Positions 5,238 through 52,118 of a DNA stretch of 54,549 bases are shown one piece after another. How positions within the stretch are numbered: the stretch's first letter is position 1; each line of letters opens with the position of its first letter. The notes beneath the pieces were generated by a model. That model saw nothing but the letters and a program-made list of their open reading frames with translations, did not search any database and was not told where the DNA came from. The position numbers were made by a program, and so were the translations under genes. The DNA is from an uncultured Pseudomonadales bacterium (GTDB taxonomy: Bacteria; Patescibacteriota; Microgenomatia; UBA1400; MFAQ01): assembly GCA_964586045.1 (NCBI GenBank), contig CAZPFY010000003.1, forward strand, positions 1 to 54,549. Direction: 5' to 3'.

Positions 5238-6182
5238 ATGAAAAAATTAATACTAATAGACGTTAATGCTTTGTTGCACAGAGCTTTTCACGCTTACCCG
5301 CCGTTTACGACACCAAAAGGTGAATTAGTTGGGGCGGTTTATGGTTTTACATCGCTGTTGTTTTCTGTCATTGAAAAACTTTCACCAACGCATGTTGTTG
5401 TCGCTTGGGATGTAAAAGGGGAGCTGTTGAGAAAAAAAGAGTATGGGGAATATAAAGCAAACAGGGGGCCGATGGATGAGACCTTGGTTTCGCAGATAGA
5501 GAGAACGAAAGAGGTTGTCGAAGCATTGAACATTCCTCAGTTTGGAATAGAAGGGTATGAGGCAGATGATATTATTGGAACTTTATCAATGGTAGGTGAA
5601 GAAAAAACTCAAAAACCCAAAAACCCAAAAACTCAAGATATAGAAGAAATTCAAGTAATTATTGTGACTGGAGACAGAGATTCTTTGCAGTTAATTCAGG
5701 GCAAGAAAGTGGTGGTTTATTTGCCTATACAGAACAAATATGCGCAATCGGTTGTTTTTGATGAAGATAAGGTAATGGAGGTGTATGGAATTAAGCCCAA
5801 ACAAGTTGTCGACTTGAAGGGTCTTATGGGCGACGCCTCGGATAACATTCCTGGTGTAAAGGGAATCGGAAAGGTAACAGCAACAAAACTGATTAAAGAT
5901 TTTGGTTCGGTTGAAGGAGTGTATAAAAATATTGATAGCAAAGAAATTAAGCCAAGAACAAGAGAGTTACTCCTTGCGGATAAAGAGATGGCGATTAAAA
6001 GTAGGCATTTGGCAGAAATAGTTAGGGACGTACCAATGGAATTTAGCTGGGAGGATTGTTTGCTTGCGGATTATGATAAGAAAAAAGTGGTCGACTTGCT
6101 GACTGAGCTAAACTTTAAAAGTTTGCTTGGGAAGTTGCCAGAGGAGAATTTTGAAAAAGAAATAGTAGATATCTTTATATGA
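5238..6182 (+). CDS. stand-alone 5'-3' exonuclease (Pol I N-terminal/FEN-like domain)
   Basis: 314 aa; YKANR, GYEADDIIGT, TGDRDSLQL, GDASDNIPGVKGIGKVTA motifs; no polymerase domain; carries A-rich repeat R1 in frame. Confidence 0.85.
   Translation: MKKLILIDVNALLHRAFHAYPPFTTPKGELVGAVYGFTSLLFSVIEKLSPTHVVVAWDVKGELLRKKEYGEYKANRGPMDETLVSQIERTKEVVEALNIPQFGIEGYEADDIIGTLSMVGEEKTQKPKNPKTQDIEEIQVIIVTGDRDSLQLIQGKKVVVYLPIQNKYAQSVVFDEDKVMEVYGIKPKQVVDLKGLMGDASDNIPGVKGIGKVTATKLIKDFGSVEGVYKNIDSKEIKPRTRELLLADKEMAIKSRHLAEIVRDVPMEFSWEDCLLADYDKKKVVDLLTELNFKSLLGKLPEENFEKEIVDIFI
5602..5639 (+). repeat. A-rich oligo-repeat R1 (in frame in the exonuclease gene)
   Basis: aaaaaactcaaaaacccaaaaacccaaaaactcaagat, translated EKTQKPKNPKTQD. 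Confidence 0.8.
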
Positions 6183-7288
6183 AAGTAGCTTTGGTTCATG
6201 ATTATATAAAGGAGTTTGGGGGAGCAGAGAGAGTTTTGAAGTCGCTTTCTGACATATATCCAGAGTCTCCGATTTATACTTCGTTTGTACTTAGAGATTC
6301 GAACTGTGCTAAAGCATTTGGAGACAAAAAAATTATTGAGAGTAAATTGGGTTGGCTATTGAAGCATTTTAATTTGTATAGTCCATTGCGATTTTTGGCG
6401 CCTTTGGTATGGCGGAGTATTGATCTTTCGGAGTATGATTTGGTAATTACCTCGTGCTCTTCATTCTTTGCTAGAGGGTTTAGGGTGCGACCAGAAACAA
6501 CGGTAATAGCTTATTGTCATACGCCGCCCAGGTTTTTGTATGGATATGAAACGAGTATTAATTTGCAAAGATTTTGGATCGTTAGAGCTTATGCGGTTGT
6601 GGTGAATCACTTTTTGCGGATTTTTGACCTTTGGAGCTCACAAAGAGTGAATTTTTGGATTGTTAATTCTGAGAACGTGAGGAAAAGGGTGTGGAAATTT
6701 TATCGAAAAGAAGCGGTTGTTGTTTATCCGCCGGTAAAAGTAGAAGAATTGATTGAAAAAGCCAAGAAGGCAAAGAAGGAAGATTACTTTTTAATCGTGT
6801 CGCGATTGGTAGGGGCAAAGGGAATAGTAGAGGCGGCAAAGGCTGTTACTAATTTGGGTTATAAATTAAAAATATCAGGTGAGGCCGTTGGGTTTTCGAG
6901 TATTAAAAAAGAACTGTTGAATATGAAGGGGGTTGAGCTTTTGGGGCGTGTAAGTGATGCTAAGATAGGAAAAATATTTGCAAAAGCGAGAGGGTTTATT
7001 GCCTTGGCAAAAGAAGAAGATTTTGGAATAACTCCCGTAGAGGCGATGGCGGCCGGAACTCCGGTAATAGCTTTTAATGGAGGTGGTTTTAAAGAAACTG
7101 TAATTGACGGAGAAACAGGAGTGTTGGTCAATGATCTTGAGGAAAAAACTTTAGAGGAAGCGATAAAAAAAATTATTAGACGTGTTTGGAAAAAAACAGA
7201 ATTGCAAAAACGAGCAATGTTGTTTTCGGAAAAAAGGTTTGTAGGTGAAATAAAGAAAGTTGTTAAGTGGGTGGTAACTGAAAAGTAG
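6179..7288 (+). CDS. glycosyltransferase, GT4 (GT-B) family
   Basis: 369 aa; C-terminal EDFGITPVEAMAAGTPVIAFNGGGFKETV (E-x7-E type motif). Confidence 0.75.
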   Translation: MKVALVHDYIKEFGGAERVLKSLSDIYPESPIYTSFVLRDSNCAKAFGDKKIIESKLGWLLKHFNLYSPLRFLAPLVWRSIDLSEYDLVITSCSSFFARGFRVRPETTVIAYCHTPPRFLYGYETSINLQRFWIVRAYAVVVNHFLRIFDLWSSQRVNFWIVNSENVRKRVWKFYRKEAVVVYPPVKVEELIEKAKKAKKEDYFLIVSRLVGAKGIVEAAKAVTNLGYKLKISGEAVGFSSIKKELLNMKGVELLGRVSDAKIGKIFAKARGFIALAKEEDFGITPVEAMAAGTPVIAFNGGGFKETVIDGETGVLVNDLEEKTLEEAIKKIIRRVWKKTELQKRAMLFSEKRFVGEIKKVVKWVVTEK

Positions 7289-8182
7289 ATGCCAGAATTG
7301 CCAGAAGTTGAAACAATCGCTGTTCAATTAAATGAAGTATTAATCGGTAAGATTGTAAGCAACGTAGTGATTCACAGGGAGAAGAATTTTTTGGGGAGTT
7401 CCGAGGAGCTAATTGGAAGGAAAATAAAGAAAGTGGGTAGAAAGGCGAAGATGGTAGGGATAGAATTTGAGGGTTACGAAAATCTTGTTCAAGTGCATTT
7501 AAAAATGACTGGACAATTAATTTTCCAGGAGAAAATTAAAAAAACTCAAGAACTCAAGGAAACAAGAACTCAAAATTTTGAAAACCGAGTAGTGGGGGGG
7601 CATCCCACTTCTGATTGGGTGAAGAGCTTGCCAAGCAAACACACTAGAGTTGAGATTGTTTTTGAGGATGGATCGGTTTTATTTTTTAATGACATGAGAG
7701 CTTTTGGGTGGATGAGGATTGTAGAAAAAACTCAAAAAATCGAAAACTCAAAAAATCAAATTCCGGATGTGGTGGATAAAGAATTTAGTTTGGACTATTT
7801 TGAAAGAGTATTAAAGAAATATAAAAGACCAATAAAAATAGTGTTGTTGGATCAACAATTAATGGGAGGAATAGGAAATATTTATGCCAATGACGCTCTT
7901 AATTTAGCGAGAATTTTGCCAACCAGAAAAGCTAGTGAACTAAGTAAAAAAGAAGTTGGTGTATTGCATAAGGCCATAAAGTTTGTAATTGATTTGGGAA
8001 TAAAGTGTGGGGGAGCTAGCGCGGCTAATTATGTAGACACAAAAGGACTTGGTGGAACTTACCAGAATTACTTTTTGACTTATAAACAAGACGGGAAGCC
8101 TTGTAAAAATTGTGGGGAGAAAATTGTTAAGATTAAACTTGGAGGAAGAGGGACTTTTTACTGCCCTAACTGCCAAAAATAA
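7289..8182 (+). CDS. mutM: formamidopyrimidine-DNA glycosylase
   Basis: Starts MPELPEVE; H2TH region; C-terminal zinc finger CKNCG..YCPNC; carries repeats R2 and R3 in frame. Confidence 0.9.
   Translation: MPELPEVETIAVQLNEVLIGKIVSNVVIHREKNFLGSSEELIGRKIKKVGRKAKMVGIEFEGYENLVQVHLKMTGQLIFQEKIKKTQELKETRTQNFENRVVGGHPTSDWVKSLPSKHTRVEIVFEDGSVLFFNDMRAFGWMRIVEKTQKIENSKNQIPDVVDKEFSLDYFERVLKKYKRPIKIVLLDQQLMGGIGNIYANDALNLARILPTRKASELSKKEVGVLHKAIKFVIDLGIKCGGASAANYVDTKGLGGTYQNYFLTYKQDGKPCKNCGEKIVKIKLGGRGTFYCPNCQK
7538..7576 (+). repeat. A-rich oligo-repeat R2 (in frame in mutM)
   Basis: aaaaaaactcaagaactcaaggaaacaagaactcaaaat, translated KKTQELKETRTQN. Confidence 0.7.
7725..7760 (+). repeat. A-rich oligo-repeat R3 (in frame in mutM)
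   Basis: aaaaaactcaaaaaatcgaaaactcaaaaaatcaaa, translated EKTQKIENSKNQ. Confidence 0.8.
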
Positions 8183-8346
8183 ATTTATTTGCTTTTCGGT
8201 CACATCCTTTGTTGTCGACCGAAAGATTTCGCCCGCGTCGAAATTTTCTTGTTTGCGGTGCCTAGACTCCTGAGTACAGGAGACCATGCTCTACGCACCT
8301 TGCAAAATATCGCCACAAAGGATATGACCTTGGCAAATAAACTTAT
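8181..8346. repeat. structured intergenic element, copy SR-A
   Basis: Starts at the mutM stop. Outer helix tttatttgc/gcaaataaa; second helix GGTCACATCCTTTGT/ACAAAGGATATGACC (15 pairs, 1 mismatch). Core TTGTCGACCGAAAG and hairpin CTCCTG-agta-CAGGAG shared with SR-B. Confidence 0.7.
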
Positions 8347-8403
8347 TTCGAGTTATTTTTGTTAATTTGCGGTTAATAATTAGCTTGATGATATACTTTA
8401 GGC

Positions 8404-9456
8404 GTGGGAATAAGGAAATTAAGCTTAACTGATTTTAGAAATTATGAGATAAAAGAAATAGATTTTGGTGATGGAGTGAACGTGATTTTTGGGGAAAATG
8501 CTAAAGGGAAAACGAATATTTTGGAGGCGGTTTATTTGATTAGTATTGGAGAAAGTTTTAGGGCCAGGCGTACTGAAGAAATGGTGAGGTTTGGGATGGA
8601 ACTTGGAAAAGTGAAAGCGGATGTTGTCTGGGAGAATGGAGACTGTCAGGATATAGAAGTGATGGTAAATGGAGGAATAGTGATGGGAAAAGTGGTAAAC
8701 AAAAGAAAGTACCTAATTGATGGTGTGTCTCGAAGGAGGAAAGATCTGCTGGGTTTGGTGCCGGTGGTGATTTTTCGTCCTGAGGATGTGGAACTGGTTA
8801 GTGGTTCGGCGGATATTCGAAGAAAATTTATGGATAGACTATTGATTCAAGTTGACAAGGTATATGAGAATAGCATCACGACTTACGAACAAGCTCTTAA
8901 AAGAAGAAATAAAATATTGGACGCGATTAGAGACGGGTCGGCAAATAGATATGCTTTGACTTTTTGGGATTCTCTTTTGATTAAACATGGTAATGTGGTA
9001 ACGGTGAAAAGACAGGAATTGGTGCAGTACATTAATGATTTGTTTGCTAGGAGCGAGCTGTTCAAAAAAATAAAACTTAATTATGAAATGAGTACTATAA
9101 GTGAGTCGCGGCTAAATCAGTATAAGGATGCGGAGGTGGCTGTAGGATACACTTTGGTAGGGCCACACAAAGACGATTTGGTAGTAAATGAAGGCGAAAG
9201 GAATCTTTCGACTTTTGGATCGCGCGGAGAACAGAGAATGGCGGTTTTGGCATTGAAAATGGGGGAAATATATTTTTTGGAAGAAATGGGTAAGAAAAAA
9301 GCGTTGTTGCTTTTGGATGATATTTTTTCGGAACTGGACGCAGTTCACAAACAAGAAGTTTTGAGAGTAACCGAAGGCAGGCAGGTTATAGTAACTACAG
9401 CAGATGAGAGTGACGCCTCAATGTTTAAAAAAGCGAAGAGAATTGATTTGGATTAA
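8404..9456 (+). CDS. recF: DNA replication and repair protein RecF
   Basis: GTG start; Walker A GENAKGKTN, signature FGSRGEQRM, Walker B LLLDDIFSELD; TGaTATACT box 6 nt upstream of the start. Confidence 0.9.
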   Translation: MGIRKLSLTDFRNYEIKEIDFGDGVNVIFGENAKGKTNILEAVYLISIGESFRARRTEEMVRFGMELGKVKADVVWENGDCQDIEVMVNGGIVMGKVVNKRKYLIDGVSRRRKDLLGLVPVVIFRPEDVELVSGSADIRRKFMDRLLIQVDKVYENSITTYEQALKRRNKILDAIRDGSANRYALTFWDSLLIKHGNVVTVKRQELVQYINDLFARSELFKKIKLNYEMSTISESRLNQYKDAEVAVGYTLVGPHKDDLVVNEGERNLSTFGSRGEQRMAVLALKMGEIYFLEEMGKKKALLLLDDIFSELDAVHKQEVLRVTEGRQVIVTTADESDASMFKKAKRIDLD

Positions 9457-9721: not shown

Positions 9722-9732
9722 AGATATATTAT

Positions 9733-9770
9733 AAAACTCAAAAACTCAAAAAACCAAAAACTCAAAATGA
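9733..9770 (+). repeat. A-rich oligo-repeat R4 (divergent intergenic region)
   Basis: aaaactcaaaaactcaaaaaaccaaaaactcaaaatga; its left edge abuts the -10 box of the minus-strand gene 9461..9721. Confidence 0.8.
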
Positions 9771-9843
9771 GGTGTTGATACAAGAGCTATCTGCGCATAT
9801 AAACGCTGCGCTTGTTGTTGACTTGATATAAAATACATGTGAA

Positions 9844-11853: not shown

Positions 11854-13590
11854 ATGCTGTTTAGAGAATTTGCTGAGTATTTAGAAAAATTGGAGAAGAT
11901 ATCTTCTCGATTGGAGATTACTACATTGCTTGCGGAACTTATTAAAAAGTTTGAGCCAGGTGAGGCAGCAAAAGGTATCTACTTGACCCAAGGCCTGTTG
12001 GGTCCGATATTTGACAATAGAGAATTCAGTATGGCGGCTAAGATGGTAATTCGATCGGTGGCCTTGGCTTTTGAAAAAAGTGCTGAGGTTGTAGAAAAAG
12101 AGTATAAAAGAGTTGGGGACTTGGGTGAAGTGGTCGTAAATTACGGGGTGGATAAAAAAACGAAGAATATTAGTTTGACTGAGGTTTTTGAAGATTTGAG
12201 AACGATTGCTTATTTTGAGGGTGCTGGTAGCCAAGAATTGAAAGTAGGCAAGCTTTCGGAGCTAATTGGGAAGATATCTTTTTTAGAAGGAAAGTTTGTA
12301 GTGAGAATGGTGATGGGTAAATTGCGTTTGGGTTTCTCGGAGAAAACGGTTTTTGATGCTCTATCGCAGATAGAAAGCGGAAATAAATCCTTGAGAAAAG
12401 AAATGGATAAAGTTTATCAATTGTATCCGGACTCTGGAGAAATAGTGAGAGCTTTTAAGGAAGATGGTTCAGGTGGACTAAAAAAAATTAAAGTGAAAGT
12501 GGGGGTGCCGATTGTCCCAGCTCTTTGCCAACGACTTAATACCTACGAGGAGATAGTGAAAAATATGGGTGAAGTAGCGATTGAGCCGAAATATGATGGA
12601 ACAAGAGTGCAGATACATTTTAAAAAAACCAAAAACTCAAAAAATCAAAATGATGTTTTGATAAAGAGTTTTACGAGGAATTTGGAGGAGAGTAGTGCGA
12701 TGTTTCCGGAGCTTAAAAAAATGGCAGAGTACACAAACGCTGACGAGCTAATTTTGGACTGTGAGGCAGTGGGGTATGATCCAAAAACAGGGAGAATATT
12801 GAACTTTCAGGAAACAATAACGAGAAAACGAAAACATGGAGTAGAAGAAGCAGCGGCTAGTGTGCCATTGAGGTTTTTTGTTTTTGATGTTTTGTTTTGG
12901 AATGGGGAGAGCTTGCTTTCTAAAAACTACTTTGAAAGAAGAGAGTTGCTAAAAAAAATAATTTTGAAAAATGAGACTTTGGTGGTTGATGAGTTTGTAA
13001 AAACTAATAATCCGATAGAACTTGAAGAAATTCACACTCGATTTTTGGAGGAGGGATATGAGGGGGCTGTAATGAAGATGTGGAGTGGTGAGTATTTGCC
13101 TGGTAGACAAGGTTGGAACTGGGTAAAAATTAAAGAGGCGGAAGGAACAAGTGGAAAACTGGCCGATACATTTGATCTTGTGGTTTTGGGTTATTACTAC
13201 GGAAGAGGTAAGAGGGCTGGTTTTGGTATGGGTGCTTTTTTGGCGGGATTAAAAAAAGGGGAAGAGTGGGTGTCGATAGCCAAAATAGGAACAGGGCTGA
13301 CAGACTTGGAGTTTAAAGAGTTGAGAAAAAGATTGGATGCGCTTGAGTTGCAAAAGAAGCCTGAAAACTTTTTGGTAGAAGATATTTTGGCCCCAGATGT
13401 ATGGGTTAGTCCTAAGGTAGTAGTTGAAATTGCGGCAGACGAAGTAACCAAAAGCCCATCTCACTCTGGAGGACTAGCTTTACGATTTCCCAGACTGGTT
13501 CGATTTAGAGATGATAAGGGAGCAGAACAATCTACGGGTTGGGAGGAAATATTAAGTATTGCAAAGATATCGGGGAATGAAATAAGTTAA
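11854..13590 (+). CDS. lig: ATP-dependent DNA ligase (archaeal/eukaryal Lig1-like, with N-terminal DNA-binding domain)
   Basis: 578 aa; adenylation motif I EPKYDGTR, motifs EGAVMK and WVKIK; TGaTATACT 6 nt before the ATG; repeat R5 in frame just after motif I. Confidence 0.9.
   Translation: MLFREFAEYLEKLEKISSRLEITTLLAELIKKFEPGEAAKGIYLTQGLLGPIFDNREFSMAAKMVIRSVALAFEKSAEVVEKEYKRVGDLGEVVVNYGVDKKTKNISLTEVFEDLRTIAYFEGAGSQELKVGKLSELIGKISFLEGKFVVRMVMGKLRLGFSEKTVFDALSQIESGNKSLRKEMDKVYQLYPDSGEIVRAFKEDGSGGLKKIKVKVGVPIVPALCQRLNTYEEIVKNMGEVAIEPKYDGTRVQIHFKKTKNSKNQNDVLIKSFTRNLEESSAMFPELKKMAEYTNADELILDCEAVGYDPKTGRILNFQETITRKRKHGVEEAAASVPLRFFVFDVLFWNGESLLSKNYFERRELLKKIILKNETLVVDEFVKTNNPIELEEIHTRFLEEGYEGAVMKMWSGEYLPGRQGWNWVKIKEAEGTSGKLADTFDLVVLGYYYGRGKRAGFGMGAFLAGLKKGEEWVSIAKIGTGLTDLEFKELRKRLDALELQKKPENFLVEDILAPDVWVSPKVVVEIAADEVTKSPSHSGGLALRFPRLVRFRDDKGAEQSTGWEEILSIAKISGNEIS
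12622..12653 (+). repeat. A-rich oligo-repeat R5 (in frame in the DNA ligase gene)
   Basis: aaaaaaaccaaaaactcaaaaaatcaaaatga, translated KKTKNSKNQND. Confidence 0.8.
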
Positions 13591-13619
13591 AAACTCAAAA
13601 AATCAAAAACTCAAAATGA
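13589..13619 (+). repeat. A-rich oligo-repeat R6 (intergenic, consensus copy)
   Basis: aaaaactcaaaaaatcaaaaactcaaaatga, beginning inside the ligase stop codon. Confidence 0.85.
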
Positions 13620-15278: not shown

Positions 15279-16130
15279 TTATTCTTCGAACTCAATAAGG
15301 GATTGAAGTTGTTCCAGTATTTTTTGTTTTTTGATTGGCTTGTTGAGAAAAAGGTCAAGTTTGGTTATCAGATTGTCATCTGATGATTTTTTGAAAGCTT
15401 TACCACCCATTGGATATTCTTGTTTTTGATCAATGGGTTGTTTGGTTAGATATTTAAGAAGTAACGTGGCAGATTTTTGTATTACCTTGATTGTCCCGTG
15501 AGCGTGATATCGGCGGAGAGAAACAATAAAGCGGGGATCGTGGATAACTCTAAAAGAGTGGCCATTTTTATACACCCTTCGAACGAAGTCTGTATCTTCG
15601 GCAAATCCAATTTTGGGGTCAAACCCGGTTGTTTTTTTGAAAACTGAGTTTTTACATCCTATCATGGCACCCAACCCGGTAGGATTTTTGGTAAGCAAAC
15701 TAGCTTCCAGTAGTAAATTGAGGCTGGTTGCGATAGTTTTGTCCTTTTGATTGTTCGTTTCGGGGAGAACCCAGCAAGTAAAAGCATCTGTTGGTTTATA
15801 TATTAACTGATAGTGAAGACCTTCCAAAAAATATTTTGGGAGTCGGTTGTCGGCATCGCTAAAAATAAGATATTCTCCTCGGGATAGTTTGGCGCCCATA
15901 TTTCTCTGGATAGAAACATTCCTTCTGGTGGAGCTTGTGACTTTTAGTGATGGTATTTTGTTAACGTATTCGCTTGCTTTTTTGAAAGTTTGGTCATCTG
16001 AGTGTCCATCGACTATGGTAACTTCGAAGCTCTGAAAGGTTTGATTGATTAGATCGTCAAGCAGCTTAGGAAGGTATTTTTCTTCGTTGAGAGCGGGGAT
16101 GATTATTGAAAAAAAAGGTCTTTGGGGCAT
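15279..16130 (-). CDS. glycosyltransferase family 2
   Basis: SIIIPALNEEKYL..VDGHSDDQT. Start set at the ATG at 16130 (TATAAT 16143-16138, 7 nt upstream), because the 15 extra codons of ORF 15279..16175 are just the reverse complement of repeat R7. Confidence 0.8.
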   Translation of the reverse strand: MPQRPFFSIIIPALNEEKYLPKLLDDLINQTFQSFEVTIVDGHSDDQTFKKASEYVNKIPSLKVTSSTRRNVSIQRNMGAKLSRGEYLIFSDADNRLPKYFLEGLHYQLIYKPTDAFTCWVLPETNNQKDKTIATSLNLLLEASLLTKNPTGLGAMIGCKNSVFKKTTGFDPKIGFAEDTDFVRRVYKNGHSFRVIHDPRFIVSLRRYHAHGTIKVIQKSATLLLKYLTKQPIDQKQEYPMGGKAFKKSSDDNLITKLDLFLNKPIKKQKILEQLQSLIEFEE

Positions 16131-16142
16131 AAAGCCTATTAT

Positions 16143-16178
16143 AAAACCCAAAAACCCAAAAAACCAAAAACTCAAAAT
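16143..16178 (+). repeat. A-rich oligo-repeat R7 (divergent intergenic region)
   Basis: aaaacccaaaaacccaaaaaaccaaaaactcaaaat; shares the left flank ttataaaac with R4. Confidence 0.8.
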
Positions 16179-16244
16179 AAGGTAGTGAGATAAGTGCTTA
16201 CTTGATAAACGCTACGCTTGTATCAGCTTGATATAATTCATAAT

Positions 16245-18597: not shown

Positions 18598-18906
18598 ATG
18601 GTTAATATGGACACAGGTTTTAAAAAATTGGTTAATGTATTGGACAAGTTTGAGATGGGAGAAGAAAAACAAAAACGGATCAGTAGAGAGTTTCAAGATT
18701 ATGCTTACCGTTTGGCGGTGGCACTGGACGATACTGCCCACACAGCAATATATATGAGGATGGCCAAAAACACACCGAGAGAAGTTTTGGAGAAGGCAAA
18801 AAGTTTTGTGATTGATTCTAGCGCCAGGAGTAAAGCGAAGATGTTTATGTGGAAGGTGAGGCAGATAAAAGAAGAACTCAAGAACTCAAAAACTCAAAAA
18901 CTCTAA
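18598..18906 (+). CDS. hypothetical protein (102 aa)
   Basis: Complete ORF, no family recognised; the last 10 codons and the stop are supplied by repeat R8. Confidence 0.4.
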   Translation: MVNMDTGFKKLVNVLDKFEMGEEKQKRISREFQDYAYRLAVALDDTAHTAIYMRMAKNTPREVLEKAKSFVIDSSARSKAKMFMWKVRQIKEELKNSKTQKL

Positions 18907-18909
18907 ATG
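18872..18909 (+). repeat. A-rich oligo-repeat R8 (forms the C-terminus of ORF 18598..18906)
   Basis: aagaactcaagaactcaaaaactcaaaaactctaaatg, translated EELKNSKTQKL then stop. Confidence 0.75.
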
Positions 18910-20790: not shown

Positions 20791-21396
20791 TTATTCGTCT
20801 GAGCTAAGCTTTTCAACTTTTTTGACTTCAATACTGATTGCATCTCCGGCGAGCACTGTGCCAATGATTGCGCCGATTATGAAGTATATGAATGAGGCGC
20901 CTAAGCGAGTTAGAATGGCCATGGGGAATCCTAAAACCATTAACAATATGTTATAGATTAGCCATAGGAGTATCGCAATTATGGTTGGATCTGAAATTTC
21001 AGACTCTTCTTTTGGAGCGGGTGAAACTCCTATCCCAAAACCGCATATCGCAATGTAAATATTACTAGCGAGAGTGAAGCCCCAGACTGCGGTATCTATG
21101 TTCACAAAGAACAGAAGGGCAACGGTGGCGACGAAGAAGGAAAAGAGATAGGTTGCGGAGACGACGGTGAAGACCGGGTTTTCGGGAATAGTTGGTTTTG
21201 TTTTTTTCGAATCGGTTTCTTGCTGAACTTCTAATGATTCTTCTACCTCAGCTTCCTGTTGGTCAGACTCTTTAAGCTGATCGACTTCGAGGAAGTGTGT
21301 TTTGCCACAGTTTGGACACGCGTAAACTTCGTTGGGTTTGATATCTGTGAGATTGGCACCACATCGTAAGCAGTAGATCATAATTAGGTTTGCCAT
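20791..21396 (-). CDS. zinc-ribbon membrane protein (201 aa)
   Basis: N-terminal CLRCG..CPNCG zinc ribbon, acidic linker, four hydrophobic helices; AAGGAG SD. Confidence 0.5.
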   Translation of the reverse strand: MANLIMIYCLRCGANLTDIKPNEVYACPNCGKTHFLEVDQLKESDQQEAEVEESLEVQQETDSKKTKPTIPENPVFTVVSATYLFSFFVATVALLFFVNIDTAVWGFTLASNIYIAICGFGIGVSPAPKEESEISDPTIIAILLWLIYNILLMVLGFPMAILTRLGASFIYFIIGAIIGTVLAGDAISIEVKKVEKLSSDE

Positions 21397-21495
21397 AGAG
21401 CATTACTCCTTTTGATATAGAATGTTAGTTTGCTGTCCTATATTATATCACAACCGGTATTTGGTAGGTAGAACTTTGAGGCTAAAAAACCTCGC

Positions 21496-21906
21496 TTAGG
21501 GCGAGGTTTGGGGAGAGGTGATTTTGGCCACATGTCTGCCGAGGTTTGTAAAAAACGCAATTATGGCTATGGTGATTAGGAAATGAGCTATAAAACCGCT
21601 GATTATGTTAAAAATAAGGTTTGATGTGAATTTATAAAATACAAATGGGAAGATGAAAAAATTGATAACATACGTTGCGACAGCAAAGCCTGACATCTCT
21701 GAGTTTATTCTGGCATTTGGATAAATTTGGTCAGACATCCCTTTGAGTACACACAATGTTGTAAAAAAGAAAAGTTTTACGAAATATATGCTGAACCAGT
21801 CTGTGTTATTTTGAAGCAAAAGGCCGGTGTTAATTAGAAAGAAAGCGGTGGAAAGTGCAACAACATATTTTTTGTAGGGCGATACCTTGGGAGACTTTTT
21901 GGTCAT
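21496..21906 (-). CDS. membrane protein, unknown function (136 aa)
   Basis: Four hydrophobic helices; AAGGAG SD 6 nt upstream; shares a promoter/leader motif with the neighbouring minus-strand gene. Confidence 0.45.
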   Translation of the reverse strand: MTKKSPKVSPYKKYVVALSTAFFLINTGLLLQNNTDWFSIYFVKLFFFTTLCVLKGMSDQIYPNARINSEMSGFAVATYVINFFIFPFVFYKFTSNLIFNIISGFIAHFLITIAIIAFFTNLGRHVAKITSPQTSP

Positions 21907-21976: not shown

Positions 21977-22005
21977 TTGACATACCCTGCTGGGGTATGT
22001 ATGAT
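21977..22005 (+). promoter_or_regulatory. sigma70-type promoter with embedded CsoR-family-type operator
   Basis: TTGACA (21977-82), 17 nt spacer, TATGAT (22000-05); the spacer is the inverted repeat ACATACCC-tgctg-GGGTATGT (21980-22000). Confidence 0.65.
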
Positions 22006-22015: not shown

Positions 22016-22045
22016 AAAACTCAAAAAATCAAAAACTCAAAATGA
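22016..22045 (+). repeat. A-rich oligo-repeat R9 (5' UTR; its terminal ATG is the start codon of 22042..22269)
   Basis: aaaactcaaaaaatcaaaaactcaaaatga. Confidence 0.85.
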
Positions 22046-22269
22046 ATGTTGAAGAAAAGAAAAAATTGCAGGTAGCCTTGAGGCGGGTTCAAGGACAAAT
22101 TGGAGGAATAGAAAAAATGGTAGCTGGAGATAAGAGTTGTGACGCGGTGGTAACTCAAATTGTGGCTTCGATGAGCTCGCTGCGGAGTGTGGCAAAAACT
22201 TTGTTGGCTGAAGCGGTAGGTAGCTGCTCAAAAGAAGATTACACTAAACTTTTAAAAAGATTTCTTTAA
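22042..22269 (+). CDS. CsoR/RcnR/FrmR-family (DUF156) metal- or thiol-sensing repressor
   Basis: 75 aa; LRRVQGQIGGIEKMV helix; two Cys (KSCDAV, GSCSKED) with no His in the CsoR Cu-ligand position. Confidence 0.75.
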   Translation: MNVEEKKKLQVALRRVQGQIGGIEKMVAGDKSCDAVVTQIVASMSSLRSVAKTLLAEAVGSCSKEDYTKLLKRFL

Positions 22270-22819: not shown

Positions 22820-23830
22820 ATGGAAAAGAAAATTTGGGATGTGGTAATTATTGGTGGTGGACCAAGTGGCTATACGGCGGCGATATACGCTGCGCGAGCA
22901 ACTTTATCGACCTTGGTGCTTACGGGTATTGCAGCTGGTGGTCAACTAATGAATACAACTGAGGTAGAGAATTTCCCTGGGTTTGGTAAGGGAATACAGG
23001 GACCGGACTTGATGATGGAGATGATGGACCAGGCTAAAAGATTTGGGGCGGAACTGAAAATGGAAAATGTAACGAAGGTGGAATCTGTAAAAACTCAAAA
23101 AATCAAAAACTCAAAAAATCAAAATGAGGAATTTGATTTGAAAAAAATATTTGTGGGAGAAGAGGAGATATTGGCAAAGACGGTAATTATTTCGACGGGG
23201 GCAGGTTCTAAATGGCTGGGTGTAGGCGAAGAAAAATATTTGGGCAAAGGGGTAAGCACTTGTGCGGTTTGTGATGCGGCTTTTTTTCGAGATAAAGTAA
23301 CTTATGTAGTGGGAGGGGGAGATGCGGCAATAGAGGATGCTTTGGCTCTTGCCAAATTTGCTAAGAGAGTAAATTTGGTAGTGAGAAGATCTGAGCTTAG
23401 GGCAAGTAAGATAATGCAGGAGAGAGTGTTGAACAATCCAAAGATAAAGATAATTTGGAATAGTGAAACAGTGGAAGTTGGAGGAGACGATGCGTTAAAA
23501 ACTCTAAAAATCAAAAATTCAAAAACTCAAAATGTGGAGGAGTTTGTAACAGATGGGCTGTTTTTGGCTATTGGTCATTTTCCGACTACTGGTTTGTTTA
23601 AGGGGCAAGTAGAACTTAACGAAAAAGATTTTGTGAAGACAGCAGTAAATGGTGAGTTGAAAACTGATTGGCTGGAAGGATATCCAACTCAAACATCTAT
23701 CAGTGGTGTCTTTGCCTGTGGAGATGTGGTGGACTTTCGCTATAAGCAAGCAATTACGGCGGCGGGGATGGGGTGTCAGGCAGCACTCGACGCAGAAAAA
23801 TATTTAACAGGAAAAACAACAAGTTATTGA
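22820..23830 (+). CDS. trxB: thioredoxin-disulfide reductase
   Basis: 336 aa; GGGPSGYTAA FAD motif, redox CAVCD, GGGDAAIEDA NADPH motif, GDV; carries repeats R10 and R11 in frame. Confidence 0.95.
   Translation: MEKKIWDVVIIGGGPSGYTAAIYAARATLSTLVLTGIAAGGQLMNTTEVENFPGFGKGIQGPDLMMEMMDQAKRFGAELKMENVTKVESVKTQKIKNSKNQNEEFDLKKIFVGEEEILAKTVIISTGAGSKWLGVGEEKYLGKGVSTCAVCDAAFFRDKVTYVVGGGDAAIEDALALAKFAKRVNLVVRRSELRASKIMQERVLNNPKIKIIWNSETVEVGGDDALKTLKIKNSKTQNVEEFVTDGLFLAIGHFPTTGLFKGQVELNEKDFVKTAVNGELKTDWLEGYPTQTSISGVFACGDVVDFRYKQAITAAGMGCQAALDAEKYLTGKTTSY
23089..23127 (+). repeat. A-rich oligo-repeat R10 (in frame in trxB)
   Basis: aaaaactcaaaaaatcaaaaactcaaaaaatcaaaatga, translated KTQKIKNSKNQNE. Confidence 0.85.
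23497..23534 (+). repeat. A-rich oligo-repeat R11 (in frame in trxB)
   Basis: aaaaactctaaaaatcaaaaattcaaaaactcaaaatg, translated KTLKIKNSKTQN. Confidence 0.8.
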
Positions 23831-25110: not shown

Positions 25111-26808
25111 ATGAAAATTAAAGAAATAATCGTAGAGGCAATTAAAAAACTGGAACTGGACGCAGAAGTATTGGTGGAGCGCCCAGGAGATATGGAGCGG
25201 GGAGATTTCTCCTGTAATATTGTCATGGTTTTGGCGAGAAAGACTGGGGAGAATCCAAGGGAACTGGCAGAAAAATTGGTGGAGAAACTGAAAAAAGATA
25301 AAGAGCTAGCGCTAGTCGTTGATTTGGAAAAAATTGAAGTCGCTGGGCCGGGGTTTATAAATTTTTGGGTTCGAGACGAGTATTTGTCGCTCGCCATGGG
25401 ACTTGCAAAAAATGATGAGTATTGGGGGCAGAGTGAGTTTATGAAAGGGAAGAAAGTTTTGGTGGAGTATAGTTCGCCTAATGTAGCCAAGAGGTTTTCG
25501 GTGGGACACTTGAGATCCACAATCGTAGGTCAGGCAATATATAACCTGTATAAAGCAAGTGGGGCAAAGATGACGAATGATAATCATTTGGGAGATTGGG
25601 GAACGCAGTTTGGAATGATTGTGGCGGGAGTAGAGGAAGAAAAACTAGATTTGGAATCACTAACAATTGAGAGTTTAGAGGAGCTATACGTCCGATTTAA
25701 TAAAAGAATTGAAGATAATTTGGAACTTAGGAATATAGCAAAAGAAGCCTTTGCGCGGTTGGAAAAAGGTGACGAAAACGCAAGAGCTATATGGAAAAAG
25801 ACGATAGAAGTGTCGATGGCTGAGTTTGAGAAAATATATGAAAAACTGGGGGTTAAATTTGAAAATACTTACGGGGAAAGTGCTTATGAGAAGATGATGC
25901 CCGAGATAATTGAAGAGGCCAAGAAAAAAGGAATAGCGGTTGAAGGGGAGGGCGGGGCATGGATTGTGAAGTTTGAGGAAAATGGGAAAGAGTACATGTC
26001 TCCGGCGATGCTGGTAAAAGGAGACGGAACAACAACTTATTTTACGAGAGACTTGGCGACAATTAAATTGAGACTTACAGAAGAAAAACTAAATGTTGAT
26101 TTGTATGTTTATGAGGTTGGCGGAGAACAGAGACTTCACTTGAGACAGGTTTTTGAGGTAGTTCGAAAGCTATGGCCGACAGAGACGGAAGGAAAGAGGT
26201 TTGTCCATGTTCCCCATGGATTGCTAACTTTACCTGAAGGAAAAATGAGCACTAGAAAGGGAAATACAATAAAACTGGAAGAGTTATTGGATAAGGCACA
26301 AGATGAAGCCTTGGATAGATCGGAGGGAAAATACACGAAGAAAGAAGCGGAGTTGATGGGGATAAATGCGGTGAAGTATAACGAACTGCGAAGGTCTCCA
26401 GGTATGGATTATGTATTTTTGTGGGAGGAGGCATTATCGATGGCGGGAAATAGTGCGCCATATATTAATTATGCGTATGTAAGAGCGAAGAAGATTGGTG
26501 AAAAAATCGAAACTGAAAAAACTCAAAAACTCAAAATATTGTTTGAGGGGGAGGAGAAAAATTTGGCGAGATGGCTTATGAAGTTTGCTGAAGGAGAGGT
26601 GGTGGAAGAGGCAGCAAAAAATTTTTCACCTCAATTAATTTGTGCTTATCTTTTTGAAGTGGCGAAGAGATTTAATGCTTTTTATGATCAGAATAAGGTA
26701 CTTGATGATCCGCGGGAGAAAGAAAGATTGGTTCTTGTTTCTGCTGTTGCAGAGATAATTAAAAGAGGGATGAAGTTGTTGGGGATAGAGATGGTGGAGA
26801 AGATGTAA
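25111..26808 (+). CDS. argS: arginyl-tRNA synthetase
   Basis: 565 aa; N-terminal Arg_tRNA_synt_N, class I HIGH-type SSPNVAKRFSVGHLRS, KMSTRKG (KMSKS), DALR anticodon-binding C-terminus; repeat R12 in frame. Confidence 0.95.
   Translation: MKIKEIIVEAIKKLELDAEVLVERPGDMERGDFSCNIVMVLARKTGENPRELAEKLVEKLKKDKELALVVDLEKIEVAGPGFINFWVRDEYLSLAMGLAKNDEYWGQSEFMKGKKVLVEYSSPNVAKRFSVGHLRSTIVGQAIYNLYKASGAKMTNDNHLGDWGTQFGMIVAGVEEEKLDLESLTIESLEELYVRFNKRIEDNLELRNIAKEAFARLEKGDENARAIWKKTIEVSMAEFEKIYEKLGVKFENTYGESAYEKMMPEIIEEAKKKGIAVEGEGGAWIVKFEENGKEYMSPAMLVKGDGTTTYFTRDLATIKLRLTEEKLNVDLYVYEVGGEQRLHLRQVFEVVRKLWPTETEGKRFVHVPHGLLTLPEGKMSTRKGNTIKLEELLDKAQDEALDRSEGKYTKKEAELMGINAVKYNELRRSPGMDYVFLWEEALSMAGNSAPYINYAYVRAKKIGEKIETEKTQKLKILFEGEEKNLARWLMKFAEGEVVEEAAKNFSPQLICAYLFEVAKRFNAFYDQNKVLDDPREKERLVLVSAVAEIIKRGMKLLGIEMVEKM
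26501..26537 (+). repeat. A-rich oligo-repeat R12 (in frame in argS)
   Basis: aaaaaatcgaaactgaaaaaactcaaaaactcaaaat, translated EKIETEKTQKLKI. Confidence 0.7.
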
Positions 26809-48652: not shown

Positions 48653-48689
48653 AGAACTCAAGGAATCAAGAACTCGAGAACTCAAGATG
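48653..48689 (+). repeat. A-rich oligo-repeat R13 (G-substituted variant, divergent intergenic region)
   Basis: agaactcaaggaatcaagaactcgagaactcaagatg. Confidence 0.7.
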
Positions 48690-48746
48690 TGTAGTAAATT
48701 TTTTGCCTGCGAGGATACTCCTCGCAGGTGGTAGAATTGGGAGTTA

Positions 48747-49974
48747 ATGAAAGAGGGAGAGATTTTGAGACCATGTAAAGAGTTTGTTCATCGACCTGAG
48801 GATTTTATGGTGGATAGAGGTGGAATGATAATGGAAGCACTGATTCTGGCAATGACAGTTCATGATGGAGAAAAAAGAAAAACGCCACCATATGAAGATT
48901 ATGTGGAACATTGTGTGGCTGTAGCTAGTATTTTGGAGAGTTGGGGAGGAAGTAACGAGGAGGAACTAGTAGCGGCGTTGCTTCATGACTCTATAGAAAA
49001 TCATCCAGACCTGATAAGCCTTGAGAATATTAGAGAGTTTTTTTGGAGACAGAGTGGCTTTTTTGGTAGATGGAGTAACGAAATTAAAATTGAAAGATAG
49101 AGGAAAAAGTGAGTTTGAGACGATGCGGAAGATAGCGAGAGATAGTTTGATTGATGAAGGGGTGGCCCGGTTGAAACTTGCTGATAGAGTACATAACATG
49201 ATGACGATGGAGGGAATGAAGCCGGAGACGCAAATAAAGAAGGCCAGAGAAACGCTGAAAGTTTATGCTCCTTTGGCCTTATCCTTTGGGGTGTGGGAAG
49301 TGAGAAATCTATTACAAGACCTGTCTTTTCCTTATTTGGATGCGGAAAGGTACTGGAGAGTAAGAAGCGAAGTGGATGGCGACCTTAGGCTACGAGCTGA
49401 TTTTGTAAACGAAGTGGAGAAAATGATTGAAACAAATTTGATAGAAGCTGGGCTGAAAGTTGAGGTGAACCATGTAATTGGGGGATATTTTGAGATTGCT
49501 GAGAAACTTAAAAAAAGGAAATGTAATCTTGACGAAATAAATGAAGTGATAAGTTTTAGGGTGCTACTTACGGATATTAATAGTTGTTATGAAGCGATGA
49601 CGGTGGTGAGGTCTAGGTTGTTGGGATCTTTGGTTGGCGAGATGCATGTTGACTATTTGCAGAAAAGCGCGGTTAATGGCTATAGTGCCTTGGAGGACGT
49701 TTATGAGTTTGGAGAGGGAAGAATTGAAATTTGTTTTACGACGAAAGAACGAGAAAAAGTTAATCAGTGGGGGTTTGGTAAAGAAACCAGAAGAAAAGTC
49801 ATATTTACTCCAAAAGAAGAATTGATATTTTTGAAGCCAGAAGCAACGGGTTACGATTTGGTTAATAAACTGGAAAATGTTTTGAGTAAAGAAGTAATGG
49901 CGATAGTAATAGAAGGTGTTATTTGCGATCTGGGTACAGTGCTTCCCAACGCGAGTTTGGTGGAGATAATATAA
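48747..49974 (+). pseudogene. Rel/SpoT homolog (HD hydrolase plus degenerate synthetase domain), interrupted by a +1 frameshift in a T7 run
   Basis: ORF 48747..49100 carries the HD motif (PYEDYVEHCVAVASIL, AALLHDSIEN). ORF 49021..49974 continues with FGDRVAFLVDGVTKL and a RelA_SpoT-like fold. The frames can only be joined at ttttttt 49038-49044. Confidence 0.7.
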
Positions 49975-49989
49975 AAAGAACTCAAGATG
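49973..49989 (+). repeat. A-rich oligo-repeat R14 (single unit)
   Basis: aaaaagaactcaagatg directly after the Rel stop codon. Confidence 0.5.
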
Positions 49990-50015
49990 TTGAATTTCGG
50001 AATATAATGATTGCT

Positions 50016-50636
50016 ATGGCAAATAAAAAGAAGCTGGTAGAGAAAAAGGAGCAGAGTATAAAAAAACATTTTGGAGTTAAGTTTTGGATTGCGCTGATTG
50101 TGATTTTGGTGTTTTATTTTGTTTTGCTTGGTCTGCAAATGTTTAGAGAGAATAGAATGCTAAGGGAGGCGGCAATAAATAAGTATCCGGTTGTTTTGAA
50201 AAATTATCCTGAAACTGGAAACTGGAAGACTTACAAGAACGACATCTGGACATTTAAATACCCCAAAGATTGGTTAGTGGTAGATTGTGGTAGTAAGGTT
50301 AGTCTTTTAATGGGACCTCAGCTTGAGAATGGACAGAAAATAGACTGTAAAGATGAATATCCTCACCCCAATAAAGCGATTTATGTATTCAGAGGTAAAG
50401 CCGTAGACGAAACGAATGGCTTTGGGAAGGATCCTGAAAACAAGAGAATGGGTTCATTTGAAAAAATTATCATTGATGCAAAGGAAGCTTGGCTTGATAC
50501 TTCTATTTACAATGGTATGTTGTTGCAACAATCAATTTTTGTGAAATTTGGAGAATATGTTGATCATATAAATTTGTGGGAAAAAGAACACAAAGAAACG
50601 TATGACAAGATAATTTCGACTTTTAGGTATTTGTAA
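50016..50636 (+). CDS. membrane-anchored protein, unknown function
   Basis: Start set at ATG 50016 (TATAAT 50003-08, 7 nt upstream; ATG 50007 is also possible); basic N-terminus, one TM helix FWIALIVILVFYFVLLGL, then a ~150 aa extracytoplasmic domain. Confidence 0.5.
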   Translation: MANKKKLVEKKEQSIKKHFGVKFWIALIVILVFYFVLLGLQMFRENRMLREAAINKYPVVLKNYPETGNWKTYKNDIWTFKYPKDWLVVDCGSKVSLLMGPQLENGQKIDCKDEYPHPNKAIYVFRGKAVDETNGFGKDPENKRMGSFEKIIIDAKEAWLDTSIYNGMLLQQSIFVKFGEYVDHINLWEKEHKETYDKIISTFRYL

Positions 50637-50637
50637 T

Positions 50638-51951
50638 CTAGGGAGTGAGGCGTTTGACACCGCGGTAGAGGTAGGTGGCTTCGCGGATGTTGTCGAGACC
50701 TAAAAGTTTCATGATGAAGCGATTTGGGCCAGCACCAAGTCCGCCATGAGGAGGACAACCATATTTGAAGAAGTTGAGGTAGTCTTGAATCGTGTCCAGA
50801 TTGATATTTTTGTCGATGGCGTTTTGTTTTAATTCTTCGTAACGGTGTTCACGTTTGGCGCCACTAGTAATCTCTAAACCGTTCCAAAGTAAGTCAAATG
50901 TTTTGCTAAGCTTAGGATCGTTCTCGTATTTTTGGCTATAAAAAGCGCGTCCTGCGGTGGGGTAGTCAATGACAAAAACAAATTCACTGTTGTGATTAAT
51001 TTTTGCATATTCACCAATACCTTTTTCTTCTTCTGGGGAAAGATCGGCTACTTTGTCGCTAGTGATACCTTTTTCTTTTAAGATTTTTTTGACTTCGGCG
51101 AAGGGGATTCTGGGGAAAGGAAGAGTGGGAACAACTAATTCTCGATTGAAAACCCTTAGGATTTCCTCGCCGTAAACTTCTTTGATTTTGGTAACGATTT
51201 CAACCAGGAGTTTTTCTTCGACATCCATAACCTCATGATGAGATTCGATGTAGGACATTTCTAAGTCGTAACCAGTAAATTCGGTATTATGGCGAGAGGT
51301 GAAGGAGGGGTCGGCGCGAAAAACGGGTCCGATTTCGAAAACTTTTTCTAAACCAGCGGCCATACCCATCTGTTTGTAGAACTGGGGTGATTGGGTGAGG
51401 TAGGCTTTGCGGTCGAAGTATTGAATCTCAAAAAGCTCGGCGCCGCCTTCGCTAGGTGAGGCAGTAGTTTTTGGGGAATGGATTTGGAGAAAGCCATTGT
51501 CAGTTAAAAAATTGGTAAAGACTTGGTCCATTAAAGTCCAAACTTTAAAAATTAGAGAGTTGTGTTCTTTGCGAAGATCGAGATATCTCCAGTCGAGACG
51601 GACATCTAAGTTTGTTTCACCTTCACTTTTTTCGTTGACAGGGATGGGAAGTTCTGGCTCGGCCACACTAAGAACCTCGACGGTGTCGATGAAAACTTCG
51701 ATACCGTTAGGAGCTTGGGCGTTTTCTTTGGCATCACCCTCGATACTAATGACGGATTCGAGAGAAAGGTCGGCAATTTTCTGGAAATTTTCTGTGTTGC
51801 CTTTGATAACCACGGTTTGGACACTGCCGGTAATATCGCGAAGGATGAGGAAGATAATGCCGCCTTGCTTGCGAATGGTTTCGGCAAAGCCGCTTACTTT
51901 GACCTTTTGGCCAAGATTGTTTTTGAGATCGGCGATGTAGGTTCGAGTCAT
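50638..51951 (-). CDS. aspS: aspartyl-tRNA synthetase, archaeal/eukaryal type (class IIb)
   Basis: 437 aa; N-terminal OB fold, FRADPSFTSRHNTEF motif 2, C-terminal GGLGAGPNRFIMKLLGLDNIREATYLYRGVKRLTP; TATAAT (51963-58) 6 nt before the ATG. Confidence 0.8.
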   Translation of the reverse strand: MTRTYIADLKNNLGQKVKVSGFAETIRKQGGIIFLILRDITGSVQTVVIKGNTENFQKIADLSLESVISIEGDAKENAQAPNGIEVFIDTVEVLSVAEPELPIPVNEKSEGETNLDVRLDWRYLDLRKEHNSLIFKVWTLMDQVFTNFLTDNGFLQIHSPKTTASPSEGGAELFEIQYFDRKAYLTQSPQFYKQMGMAAGLEKVFEIGPVFRADPSFTSRHNTEFTGYDLEMSYIESHHEVMDVEEKLLVEIVTKIKEVYGEEILRVFNRELVVPTLPFPRIPFAEVKKILKEKGITSDKVADLSPEEEKGIGEYAKINHNSEFVFVIDYPTAGRAFYSQKYENDPKLSKTFDLLWNGLEITSGAKREHRYEELKQNAIDKNINLDTIQDYLNFFKYGCPPHGGLGAGPNRFIMKLLGLDNIREATYLYRGVKRLTP

Positions 51952-52075
51952 GAGATGATTATAACAAGCTCATAATGACTTTTGTGATTATGAGCGTAGT
52001 TATAAGAGGAAGCGCAGGAAGATATTTTGATAATAATTATTATCAAAAAGATGACGAGCAAGCTCTTATACAGTC

Positions 52076-52118
52076 AAAAAAACTCAAGAACTCAAAAAAT
52101 CAAAAACTCAAGATAATG
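52076..52118 (+). repeat. A-rich oligo-repeat R15 (intergenic)
   Basis: aaaaaaactcaagaactcaaaaaatcaaaaactcaagataatg, bracketed by 19-nt direct repeats at 52048-66 and 52142-60. Confidence 0.8.

Follow-up and report, generated by a model that had tools for sequence, protein, structure and literature searches.

A dispersed A-rich octanucleotide repeat in housekeeping genes and spacers of a Collierbacteria chromosome piece

Why should a tiny, streamlined genome of the candidate phyla radiation (CPR) carry a repeat in its most conserved genes? A 54.5-kb piece of chromosome (contig CAZPFY010000003.1; 'the window' denotes this whole stretch) from a tiny groundwater bacterium of the Collierbacteria (Microgenomates, CPR) contains short arrays of A-rich octanucleotides in spacers and, unexpectedly for such a genome, in loops of TrxB, DNA ligase, Fpg, ArgRS and a FEN-like exonuclease. 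The assignment to Collierbacteria follows TrxB, the ligase and their neighbours, which share 55–80% identity and synteny with metagenome-assembled genomes (MAGs) of Candidatus Collierbacteria. We analysed how these arrays are distributed, how they differ between relatives, and which process could account for them, starting from an original prediction that had been made from the sequence of the window alone.

Tandem Repeats Finder and regular-expression scans identified 14 period-8 arrays in the window (Table 1), a density of ~14 arrays per 54 kb or ~1 per 4 kb. All were on the + strand, as originally predicted; the prediction had counted 15 copies, and the fifteenth was not found. At the 14 sites, Tandem Repeats Finder gave head-to-tail units of period 8 in 3.1–4.5 copies with 73–100% matches, and the arrays span ~27–36 nucleotides (nt). 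They are composed of A5CTC, A6TC, A5CCC or AAGAACTC units and end in ...CTC-AAAAT. We distinguish A-type units (AAAAACTC and AAAAAATC) from G-type units (AAGAACTC/AAGGAATC); the latter, seen in R2, R13 and sections of R8 and R14, are usually the more degenerate. The 3' edge is sharp (...CTC-AA(A/G)A-T), with the T present in 14/14 arrays and a G four bases on in 12/14, while the 5' edge is undefined and no conserved 5' flank was found. The spread is uneven: 12 arrays lie within 21 kb and are followed by a gap of 22 kb (P = 0.009).

This repeat is not a chance product. Ten arrays of at least three units were present on the + strand and none on the − strand, with 0.01 expected from order-3 and order-5 Markov simulations; both the motif frequency and the strand bias thus exceed the Markov expectation, as had been anticipated, and chance or codon usage as the origin was ruled out. 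A 29-mer consensus with up to three mismatches matched 10 times, compared with 0 matches in 100 shuffles, and each of the 18 occurrences of the 11-mer AAAACTCAAAA falls within an array.

The window has a G+C content of 39%, with 26% G and 13% C on the + strand. The polarity of the arrays opposes this base composition, as their C-bearing orientation sits on the strand poor in C, and the five longest stretches of the + strand without a G are arrays. The GC skew itself is extreme and uniform (+0.18 to +0.43 per 2-kb bin), being positive even over minus-strand genes; it is +0.24 to +0.33 in sister Collierbacteria loci.

The orientation of the arrays is constrained by coding. Whereas (A5CTC)n is free of stop codons in all frames, its reverse complement (GAGTTTTT)n contains a TGA in each frame within 24 nt, so that an array within an open reading frame (ORF) can only be sense. 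Together with the ~78% of genes on the leading strand (42/54 genes of the window are on the + strand), this would explain the strand polarity. Because a period of 8 is coprime with 3, arrays of at least three units are read in all three phases; the constant reading frame to which the original prediction had attached meaning is an arithmetic result of the period and is uninformative. All array indels keep the frame, which indicates that the arrays are translated and not removed.

All fetched loci together gave 58 non-redundant arrays, of which 36 fall within long sense frames; the G-rich strand carries 54 of the 58, and 20/22 of the intergenic ones. With ~80% of genes co-oriented with replication, gene direction and replication direction cannot be separated as the cause of the intergenic polarity. 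A canonical array in locus L083, however, lies in sense within a lagging-strand gene, on the C-rich strand, so that its orientation follows the gene and not the replication fork; L083 is one counter-example, and none of the compared windows spans ori or ter.

Eight arrays lie within + strand ORFs, as predicted, and Pfam confirmed the hosts: the 5'-3' exonuclease, Fpg/MutM (two arrays), the ATP-dependent ligase, the C-terminus of ORF 18598, TrxB (two arrays) and ArgRS. Ortholog alignments bore out the proposal that the first arrays of trxB and mutM are net insertions in loops. At trxB site 1 the insertion amounts to 14 amino acids (aa) relative to sister Collierbacteria and forms a low-confidence loop between two hairpin strands in the AlphaFold model (mean predicted local distance difference test score of 70). 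Among 28 close homologs the insert was missing, short (+7 aa, +21 nt) or long (+15 aa, +45 nt), and these states were interspersed among proteins that are 93–100% identical elsewhere. At the DNA level the long allele equals the short one plus exactly 24 nt (three units, 8 aa). Two of the homologs, P0004 and P0009, have 99% identity over the rest of the protein, yet P0004 shares the 45-nt core of the window; by alignment, its allele looks like a local replacement or recombination tract. A comparison of empty and filled alleles revealed no target-site duplication flanking trxB site 1.

MutM has an array-free base form of 282 aa, relative to which R2 is a net insertion of ~15 aa. Inserts of 12–15 aa of the KTQKLKNSKTQ type occur at this site in a patchy manner in lineages that are 56–77% identical, sometimes with additional inserts nested in them, and the ortholog in L093 carries a perfect canonical array. 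At mutM site 2, ENYEKEMRKTS was changed to TQKIKNSKNQI without a change in length in several lineages. The second arrays of mutM and trxB had both been predicted to be length-neutral replacements of native sequence. Length neutrality was found for both, and replacement for mutM; trxB site 2 is an ancestral hairpin instead. Its LKIKNSKTQN is confidently folded and conserved in the clade, with IKNIKTGK or IKNVETGL in outgroups, and by this comparison it is native, its DNA either resembling the motif or having been drawn or converted towards it.

In the ligase, the loop after KYDG holds inserts of 6, 7, 10, 14 or 22 aa in 22 of 120 homologs (R5 adds 7 aa relative to the distant Collierbacteria ligase), and the distant ligases L086 and L089 have the motif at other sites. 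Inserts in the ligase and mutM loops differ by 8-aa steps and are patchily present over many lineages; even in close relatives, a given loop may hold no array, a short one or a long one. The R1 ortholog in L093 likewise has a longer, variable insert in the same loop.

Comparison with five relatives (L097, L098, L112, L113 and L115; 75–89% TrxB identity) revealed turnover at fixed sites. These relatives have arrays at six sites of the window, namely the ligase loop, the tail of ORF 18598, the csoR 5' untranslated region (UTR), trxB sites 1 and 2, and argS. Their arrays are G-type and often degenerate, whereas 5/6 arrays in the window are clean A-type; counted by eye, the six arrays contain ~4 G residues in the window and ~32 in L097. 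The csoR leader, for example, reads AAGAACTC AAGGAATC AAATTAAT AAGAACTC AAGATAATG in L115, and the canonical AAAACTCAAAAAATCAAAAACTCAAAATG in the window. A general shift in A/G composition was rejected as the source of this contrast, since base composition and Lys/Arg/Glu codon usage are equal in the window and L097.

The core 23-mer AAAACTCAAAAAATCAAAAACTC was unchanged in 24 loci from Collierbacteria, Woesebacteria, Amesbacteria and Microgenomatus genomes, and the canonical 28-mer in 11 metagenome loci, none of them from the window's own genome. The prediction that the nucleotide motif rather than the peptide is conserved agrees with this identity in distant Microgenomates and with the sharing of the motif by genic and intergenic copies. 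That G-type arrays of relatives are A-type here, and that the 23-mer is shared with distant Microgenomates, points to copying between loci.

Spread of the family was seen as well. R6 and R7 are missing from relatives, R6 lying in a ~70-nt spacer that they lack and R7 being a ~88-nt insertion relative to L097/L098. Distant syntenic Collierbacteria loci (L007, L001, L002 and L003; ~48 kb, partly redundant) contain one degenerate array only, which indicates that the family was amplified in the lineage of the window; a 1.09-Mb Collierbacteria contig holds just 2 exact 23-mers. In two further samples of the same strain, the consensus assemblies were 99.97–99.98% identical to the window with 0 gaps across six arrays. 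The arrays are thus not hypermutable.

Two relatives of Collierbacteria GW2011_GWB2_45_17 (L109 and L102) differ by three gaps of 108–116 nt, one of which starts within a G-type array, and their contigs are otherwise 100% identical. We rejected these ~110-nt indels as a mobile element: the missing sequence is ordinary coding DNA, and the gaps are probably assembly artefacts.

Six of the 14 arrays are intergenic, although non-coding DNA makes up 12% of the window (P = 0.004). R4 lies in the divergent spacer between a DUF5654 gene (−) and a NAD(P)H-hydrate dehydratase-like gene (+). As predicted, R4 and R7 abut the −10 box (TATAAT) of a minus-strand gene and share TTATAAAAC, and the shared part extends to a cassette of ~110 nt; R4 adjoins TATAAT-N6-ATG, and R13 is 8 nt from a minus-strand TATAAT. 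In these three spacers TATAAT stands 6–10 nt before the ATG of the minus-strand gene, the distance being just 6–7 nt for the DUF5654 and GT2 genes (9722–9732 and 16128–16142). As read from the sequence, this geometry suggests leaderless transcripts, in which case the T-rich complement of the array would occupy the −35 and upstream region of the promoter. For the GT2 gene, the ORF called mechanically from a TTG at 16175 spuriously crosses the array.

The prediction that R9 makes up the entire 5' UTR of the csoR-like gene and contributes its ATG was confirmed. A near-consensus promoter (TTGACA-17-TATGAT, 21977–22005) precedes the csoR-like gene and trxA, and R9 starts ~4 nt past the predicted transcription start and runs into the ATG. 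The array is kept in degenerate form in L097, L098 and L115, and L100 has a normal Shine-Dalgarno (SD) sequence instead. A palindrome in the promoter spacer (ATACCC..GGGGTAT) resembles a CsoR operator. Apart from the csoR promoter, a promoter consensus scan of the window found no enrichment over shuffles. Judged by position, the placements of R9, R4, R7 and R13 look like co-options and are no proof of function. R6 and R14 had been predicted to begin at stop codons, which holds for R6 in so far as it starts just past the stop codon of the ligase gene; a second copy at a real stop codon was not confirmed.

Table 1. Arrays of the octanucleotide repeat in the window
Feature	Coordinates	Strand	Description
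R1	5602..5636	+	Units CTC, CCC, CCC, CTC; in 5'-3' exonuclease gene 5238–6182; peptide EEKTQKPKNPKTQD
R2	7543..7573	+	mutM site 1; degenerate G-type, AACTCAAG units
R3	7725..7760	+	mutM site 2, interdomain linker; A-type; length-neutral replacement of ENYEKEMRKTS-type sequence
R4 cassette	9724..9835	+	TATTAT, array 9733–9767 and ~65 nt conserved downstream
R5	12622..12650	+	ATP-dependent DNA ligase, 8 aa past motif I KYDG
R6	13589..13616	+	Canonical 28-mer, 3 nt past ligase stop codon
R7 cassette	16135..16240	+	Array 16143–16177; paralog of R4 cassette; divergent spacer GT2 (−)/pth (+)
R8	18875..18907	+	Encodes C-terminal tail KEELKNSKTQKL and stop codon of ORF 18598–18906; 4-unit arrays in orthologs L097, L098, L099
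R9	22016..22044	+	Canonical; 5' UTR of csoR-like gene 22042–22269, without SD sequence
R10	23089..23124	+	trxB site 1; 14-aa net insertion, beta-hairpin loop
R11	23497..23532	+	trxB site 2; ancestral hairpin LKIKNSKTQN; length-neutral
R12	26510..26536	+	argS, loop ahead of DALR domain helix
R13	48653..48687	+	Degenerate G-type; divergent spacer class II aminoacyl-tRNA synthetase (−)/RelA/SpoT-like HD gene (+)
R14	52078..52111	+	Mixed-type; divergent spacer 51952–52215, between copies of a 23-nt direct repeat

No terminal inverted repeats or palindromes were present at the array ends, and 3' hairpins formed by the last unit and the 3' flank were no stronger than with random flanks (P = 0.78). 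An antisense intrinsic terminator, in which a hairpin would be followed by the minus-strand U-tract, was rejected for the window (summed folding energy of −45.1 versus −52.5 for the null, P = 0.78). Such an arrangement was seen elsewhere. In L087 (1150–1210) and the orthologous L080, the stop codon of an S41 C-terminal peptidase gene is followed by a canonical array and then by a GC-rich hairpin; read from the other strand, this hairpin and the U-tract of the array complement constitute a textbook intrinsic terminator of the convergent gene. A 19-nt repeat flanking R14 was dismissed as a target-site duplication, because it belongs to a set of three 23-nt direct repeats (AAGATGACGAGCAAGCTCTTATA; 52048–52164, 74–100% identical) around the array; these copies look like operator sites. 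In Rfam, the arrays had no match at the gathering score (the window gave two tRNAs only), and neither had 16 loci with related arrays. Searches of the literature on the literal sequences and on CPR repeats returned nothing relevant and no description of the repeat.

Related arrays are found beyond the CPR. Across species-representative genomes from many phyla, the G-type pattern AAGAACTCAAGAACTCAAGAA occurred at 119 loci or more. Among the matches listed, one Acidobacteriota MAG (CAVONV01) accounts for at least 14 loci; its arrays are mostly intergenic, often 0–7 nt past a stop codon or just before an SD sequence or start codon. Multi-locus families of (AAGAACTC)n arrays were seen in Acidobacteriota, Chthoniobacterales, Bacteroidales, Paenibacillus and a 59% G+C IMG/VR contig (L120–L232), in many cases 0–7 nt past a stop codon or shortly before an SD sequence, and sometimes beside tandem repeats with other units of 7 to 9 nt, such as (CACTGGTGA)n. 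With a control octamer of matched composition, 40 loci and zero multi-locus genomes were obtained, which indicates that tandem octamers are a general bacterial background; the AAGAACTC unit outnumbers the control at least threefold and occurs in dispersed families. Approximately 24 of the 117 analysed AAGAACTCAAGAACTCAAGAA loci, again among the matches listed, were CPR-like by G+C content and skew. As a rough estimate, which rests on an approximate figure for the small Microgenomates share of the collection, this corresponds to a CPR enrichment in the order of 100-fold per megabase. Scans of viral contigs as a frequency control gave 4 versus 2 and 3, counts too low to carry information.

Our best reading of these data is that the family is a minisatellite-like 'genomic weed', characteristic of Microgenomates and strongly amplified in the lineage of the window, whose arrays act more like a simple repeat that propagates itself than like an established signal. 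With confidence somewhat short of even, we favour a family of dispersed octanucleotide repeats that owes its spread to slippage and homology-driven copying, persists where it is tolerated and has occasionally been co-opted. Units would be gained and lost by replication slippage between adjacent A-runs, and within genes only three-unit steps (24 nt, 8 aa) would survive. Non-reciprocal copying guided by homology or microhomology (template switching or gene conversion) may seed new arrays and overwrite old degenerate ones, and such copying between loci could maintain the genome-wide consensus. The A-rich strand, open in three frames and encoding a hydrophilic K/N/S/T/Q peptide, would be tolerated in surface loops, C-terminal tails and spacers, where most copies are presumably neutral; a few may have been co-opted, as the SD-less csoR 5' UTR or as the −35 and upstream part of minus-strand promoters. 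An in-frame element similar to Rickettsia palindromic elements (RPE) and spreading by gene conversion had been among the original suggestions. Its in-frame, gene-converting part fits best, but the RPE-like structure does not, given that there is no palindrome and that the hairpins are not stronger than expected (P = 0.78).

Several observations weigh against slippage and copying. Collierbacteria, Woesebacteria, Amesbacteria and Microgenomatus share the exact 23- to 28-mer even though their genes are otherwise saturated with changes, and this identity suggests a constraint on the sequence by a function or a sequence-specific enzyme. Array length remains at ~27–36 nt even in spacers, and the 3' end is far sharper than the 5' end, which is unusual for a free-running simple repeat. 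Divergent spacers hold 5/6 intergenic arrays (P = 0.013, corrected for spacer length). Moreover, the arrays unchanged in the two same-strain samples indicate that slippage is not fast, and no donor–recipient copying event was caught directly. Since the exact conservation, the narrow length range and the sharp 3' end are poorly explained, three rival explanations stay alive, and a dedicated function or enzyme for the repeat is possible.

The rival to which we give most weight, while still considering it unlikely, is a discrete mobile or enzyme-templated element: a transposase footprint, or an RNA-templated, telomerase- or retrohoming-like addition of (GAGTTTTT)n from a fixed ...CAT end that writes the 28-nt unit. 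It would accommodate the conservation of the 28-mer over distant lineages, the fixed 3' and variable 5' boundary, and the overwriting of degenerate arrays by canonical sequence at fixed loci; the degenerate G-type and clean A-type copies have the look of a succession of subfamilies, new insertions are lineage-specific, and AAGAACTC forms multi-locus families in unrelated phyla. However, terminal inverted repeats, target-site duplications and hairpins were not found, neither a transposase nor a reverse transcriptase is among the annotated genes of the window (the only recombinase is an Xer-like integrase), unit number and type differ from copy to copy, and slippage accounts for the 24-nt steps. 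Slightly less probable in our view is that Microgenomates possess a conserved trans-acting factor which dictates the canonical 28-mer, T-(A5CTC/A6TC)3-AAAAT, and that the 28-mer acts as a genome-wide drive element. This factor could be an uptake or recombination receptor, or an RNA-templated or sequence-specific insertion activity, and would constantly write and renew the motif at many sites, including in loops of essential proteins. If 28-mer conservation does reflect such a factor, an undescribed system of uptake, drive or templated insertion would be at work.

An RNA cis-element on the sense strand is about as doubtful as the trans-acting factor. In a G-rich, C-poor transcriptome, a G-free unstructured stretch might provide a site for SD-independent ribosome loading or standby, or for Rho, RNases or RNA-binding proteins, and R9 as the whole SD-less csoR 5' UTR (kept in L097, L098 and L115), the arrays as the longest G-free + strand runs, the sense orientation of every copy to prevailing transcription, and the Acidobacteriota MAG arrays near SD sequences and start codons or after stop codons are all consistent with it. 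Most copies, though, are in coding loops with no such function evident and are patchy among close relatives; R4, R7 and R13 lie upstream of putative + strand promoters (read by eye; the consensus scan lists one weak match) and would then probably be untranscribed in the sense direction, and the distance to start and stop codons is not constant.

A polar or self-recognition signal at the DNA level, comparable to FtsK-orienting polar sequences (KOPS), Chi or DNA uptake sequences (DUS) and arising by selection or by uptake-biased recombination in competent CPR cells, appears less likely again. The density of ~one per 4 kb, the 54/58 arrays on the G-rich strand, lineage-specific 'dialects' and mosaic alleles that hint at recombination would suit such a signal. 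A replication-polar architecture as originally proposed is nevertheless not supported by the lagging-strand array of L083, which follows its gene, by the 22-kb array-free stretch of the window, and by the single degenerate array in ~48 kb of distant Collierbacteria synteny; the two exact 23-mers of the 1.09-Mb contig also speak against a signal, uptake signals have no strand bias in spacers, and the arrays consist of 3–4 units and not of single words. Far less probable than any of these, and essentially excluded, is an origin from codon usage or peptide selection, in which KTQKIKNSKNQ-like linkers are selected or Lys/Asn-rich coding yields the arrays. Site 2 of trxB, an ancestral LKxKNxKTG hairpin whose native coding is already motif-like, fits this explanation, but Markov models that keep oligonucleotide usage predict 0.01 arrays, six copies are intergenic, AAAACTCAAAA never occurs outside arrays, and the presence of inserts is patchy among near-identical proteins.

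The repeat resembles several known systems and has the full definition of none, be it RPE, short tandemly repeated repetitive (STRR) heptamers or coding microsatellites. With RPE it shares short dispersed copies in frame at tolerant surface sites of housekeeping genes and in spacers, and lineage-specific proliferation in a reduced genome. RPE are single units of ~100–150 bp, palindromic and hairpin-forming, whereas the copies described here are 27–36-nt tandem octamers that lack a palindrome and change by 24-nt steps. Cyanobacterial STRR likewise form dispersed few-unit arrays of 7 or 8 nt in many copies, with a unit kept across genera and no known function. STRR, however, lie between genes, whereas over half of the copies described here are translated as part of genes, the unit is an A-rich 8-mer and the host belongs to the CPR. 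Contingency loci of Haemophilus, Neisseria and Campylobacter also have short tandem units within ORFs that change in number by slippage, but they switch on and off by frameshifts and are hypervariable in populations, in contrast to the frame-preserving three-unit changes, the essential hosts and the identical arrays in two further samples observed here. Uptake signal sequences (USS)/DUS, Chi and KOPS are comparable as over-represented oligomers found once per few kb at tolerant genic positions, with lineage 'dialects' and strand bias; unlike these single, evenly spread 8–12-mers that arise by point mutation, the present arrays add length, are clustered and gene-oriented, and are nearly absent in sister species. 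The Plasmodium-type Lys/Asn-rich inserts of AT-rich genomes are A-rich sense-strand repeats as well, growing by slippage in loops of conserved proteins. Their sequence is heterogeneous, whereas in the present family one particular sequence of 16 to 28 nt reappears unchanged at unrelated loci, in distant lineages and at non-coding sites.

The repeat offers a read-out of slippage, inter-locus copying and recombination in unculturable organisms, and it accounts for length heterogeneity and odd Lys-rich inserts in alignments of CPR proteins. It also calls for caution in annotation, as with the spurious ORF extension from the TTG start at 16175, and provides candidate cases in which a repeat serves as a leader without an SD sequence or makes up the upstream half of the promoter of a leaderless gene.

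The window has a housekeeping gene content. It encodes many aminoacyl-tRNA synthetases, a CsoR-like repressor, TrxA/TrxB, FtsH, RecF, Fpg and the ATP-dependent ligase, as well as a 5'-3' exonuclease that stands alone. A tRNA-Ile with the anticodon TAT (UAU) is located at 5–79. This is unusual, as bacteria usually decode AUA with a lysidine-modified CAU tRNA. The RelA/SpoT-like HD gene downstream of R13 (48747–49974) is split into two overlapping ORFs, with a Pfam HD_4 match that spans both and a frame change near 49040 at a run of seven Ts; it could be a pseudogene, an assembly error or a case of programmed slippage. Beside R9, two minus-strand genes of no assigned function (20791–21906), one for a 201-aa protein whose N-terminus is zinc-ribbon-like and one for a 136-aa protein, separate genes that are adjacent in L097, L098 and L007, and constitute a lineage-specific insertion of ~1.2 kb.

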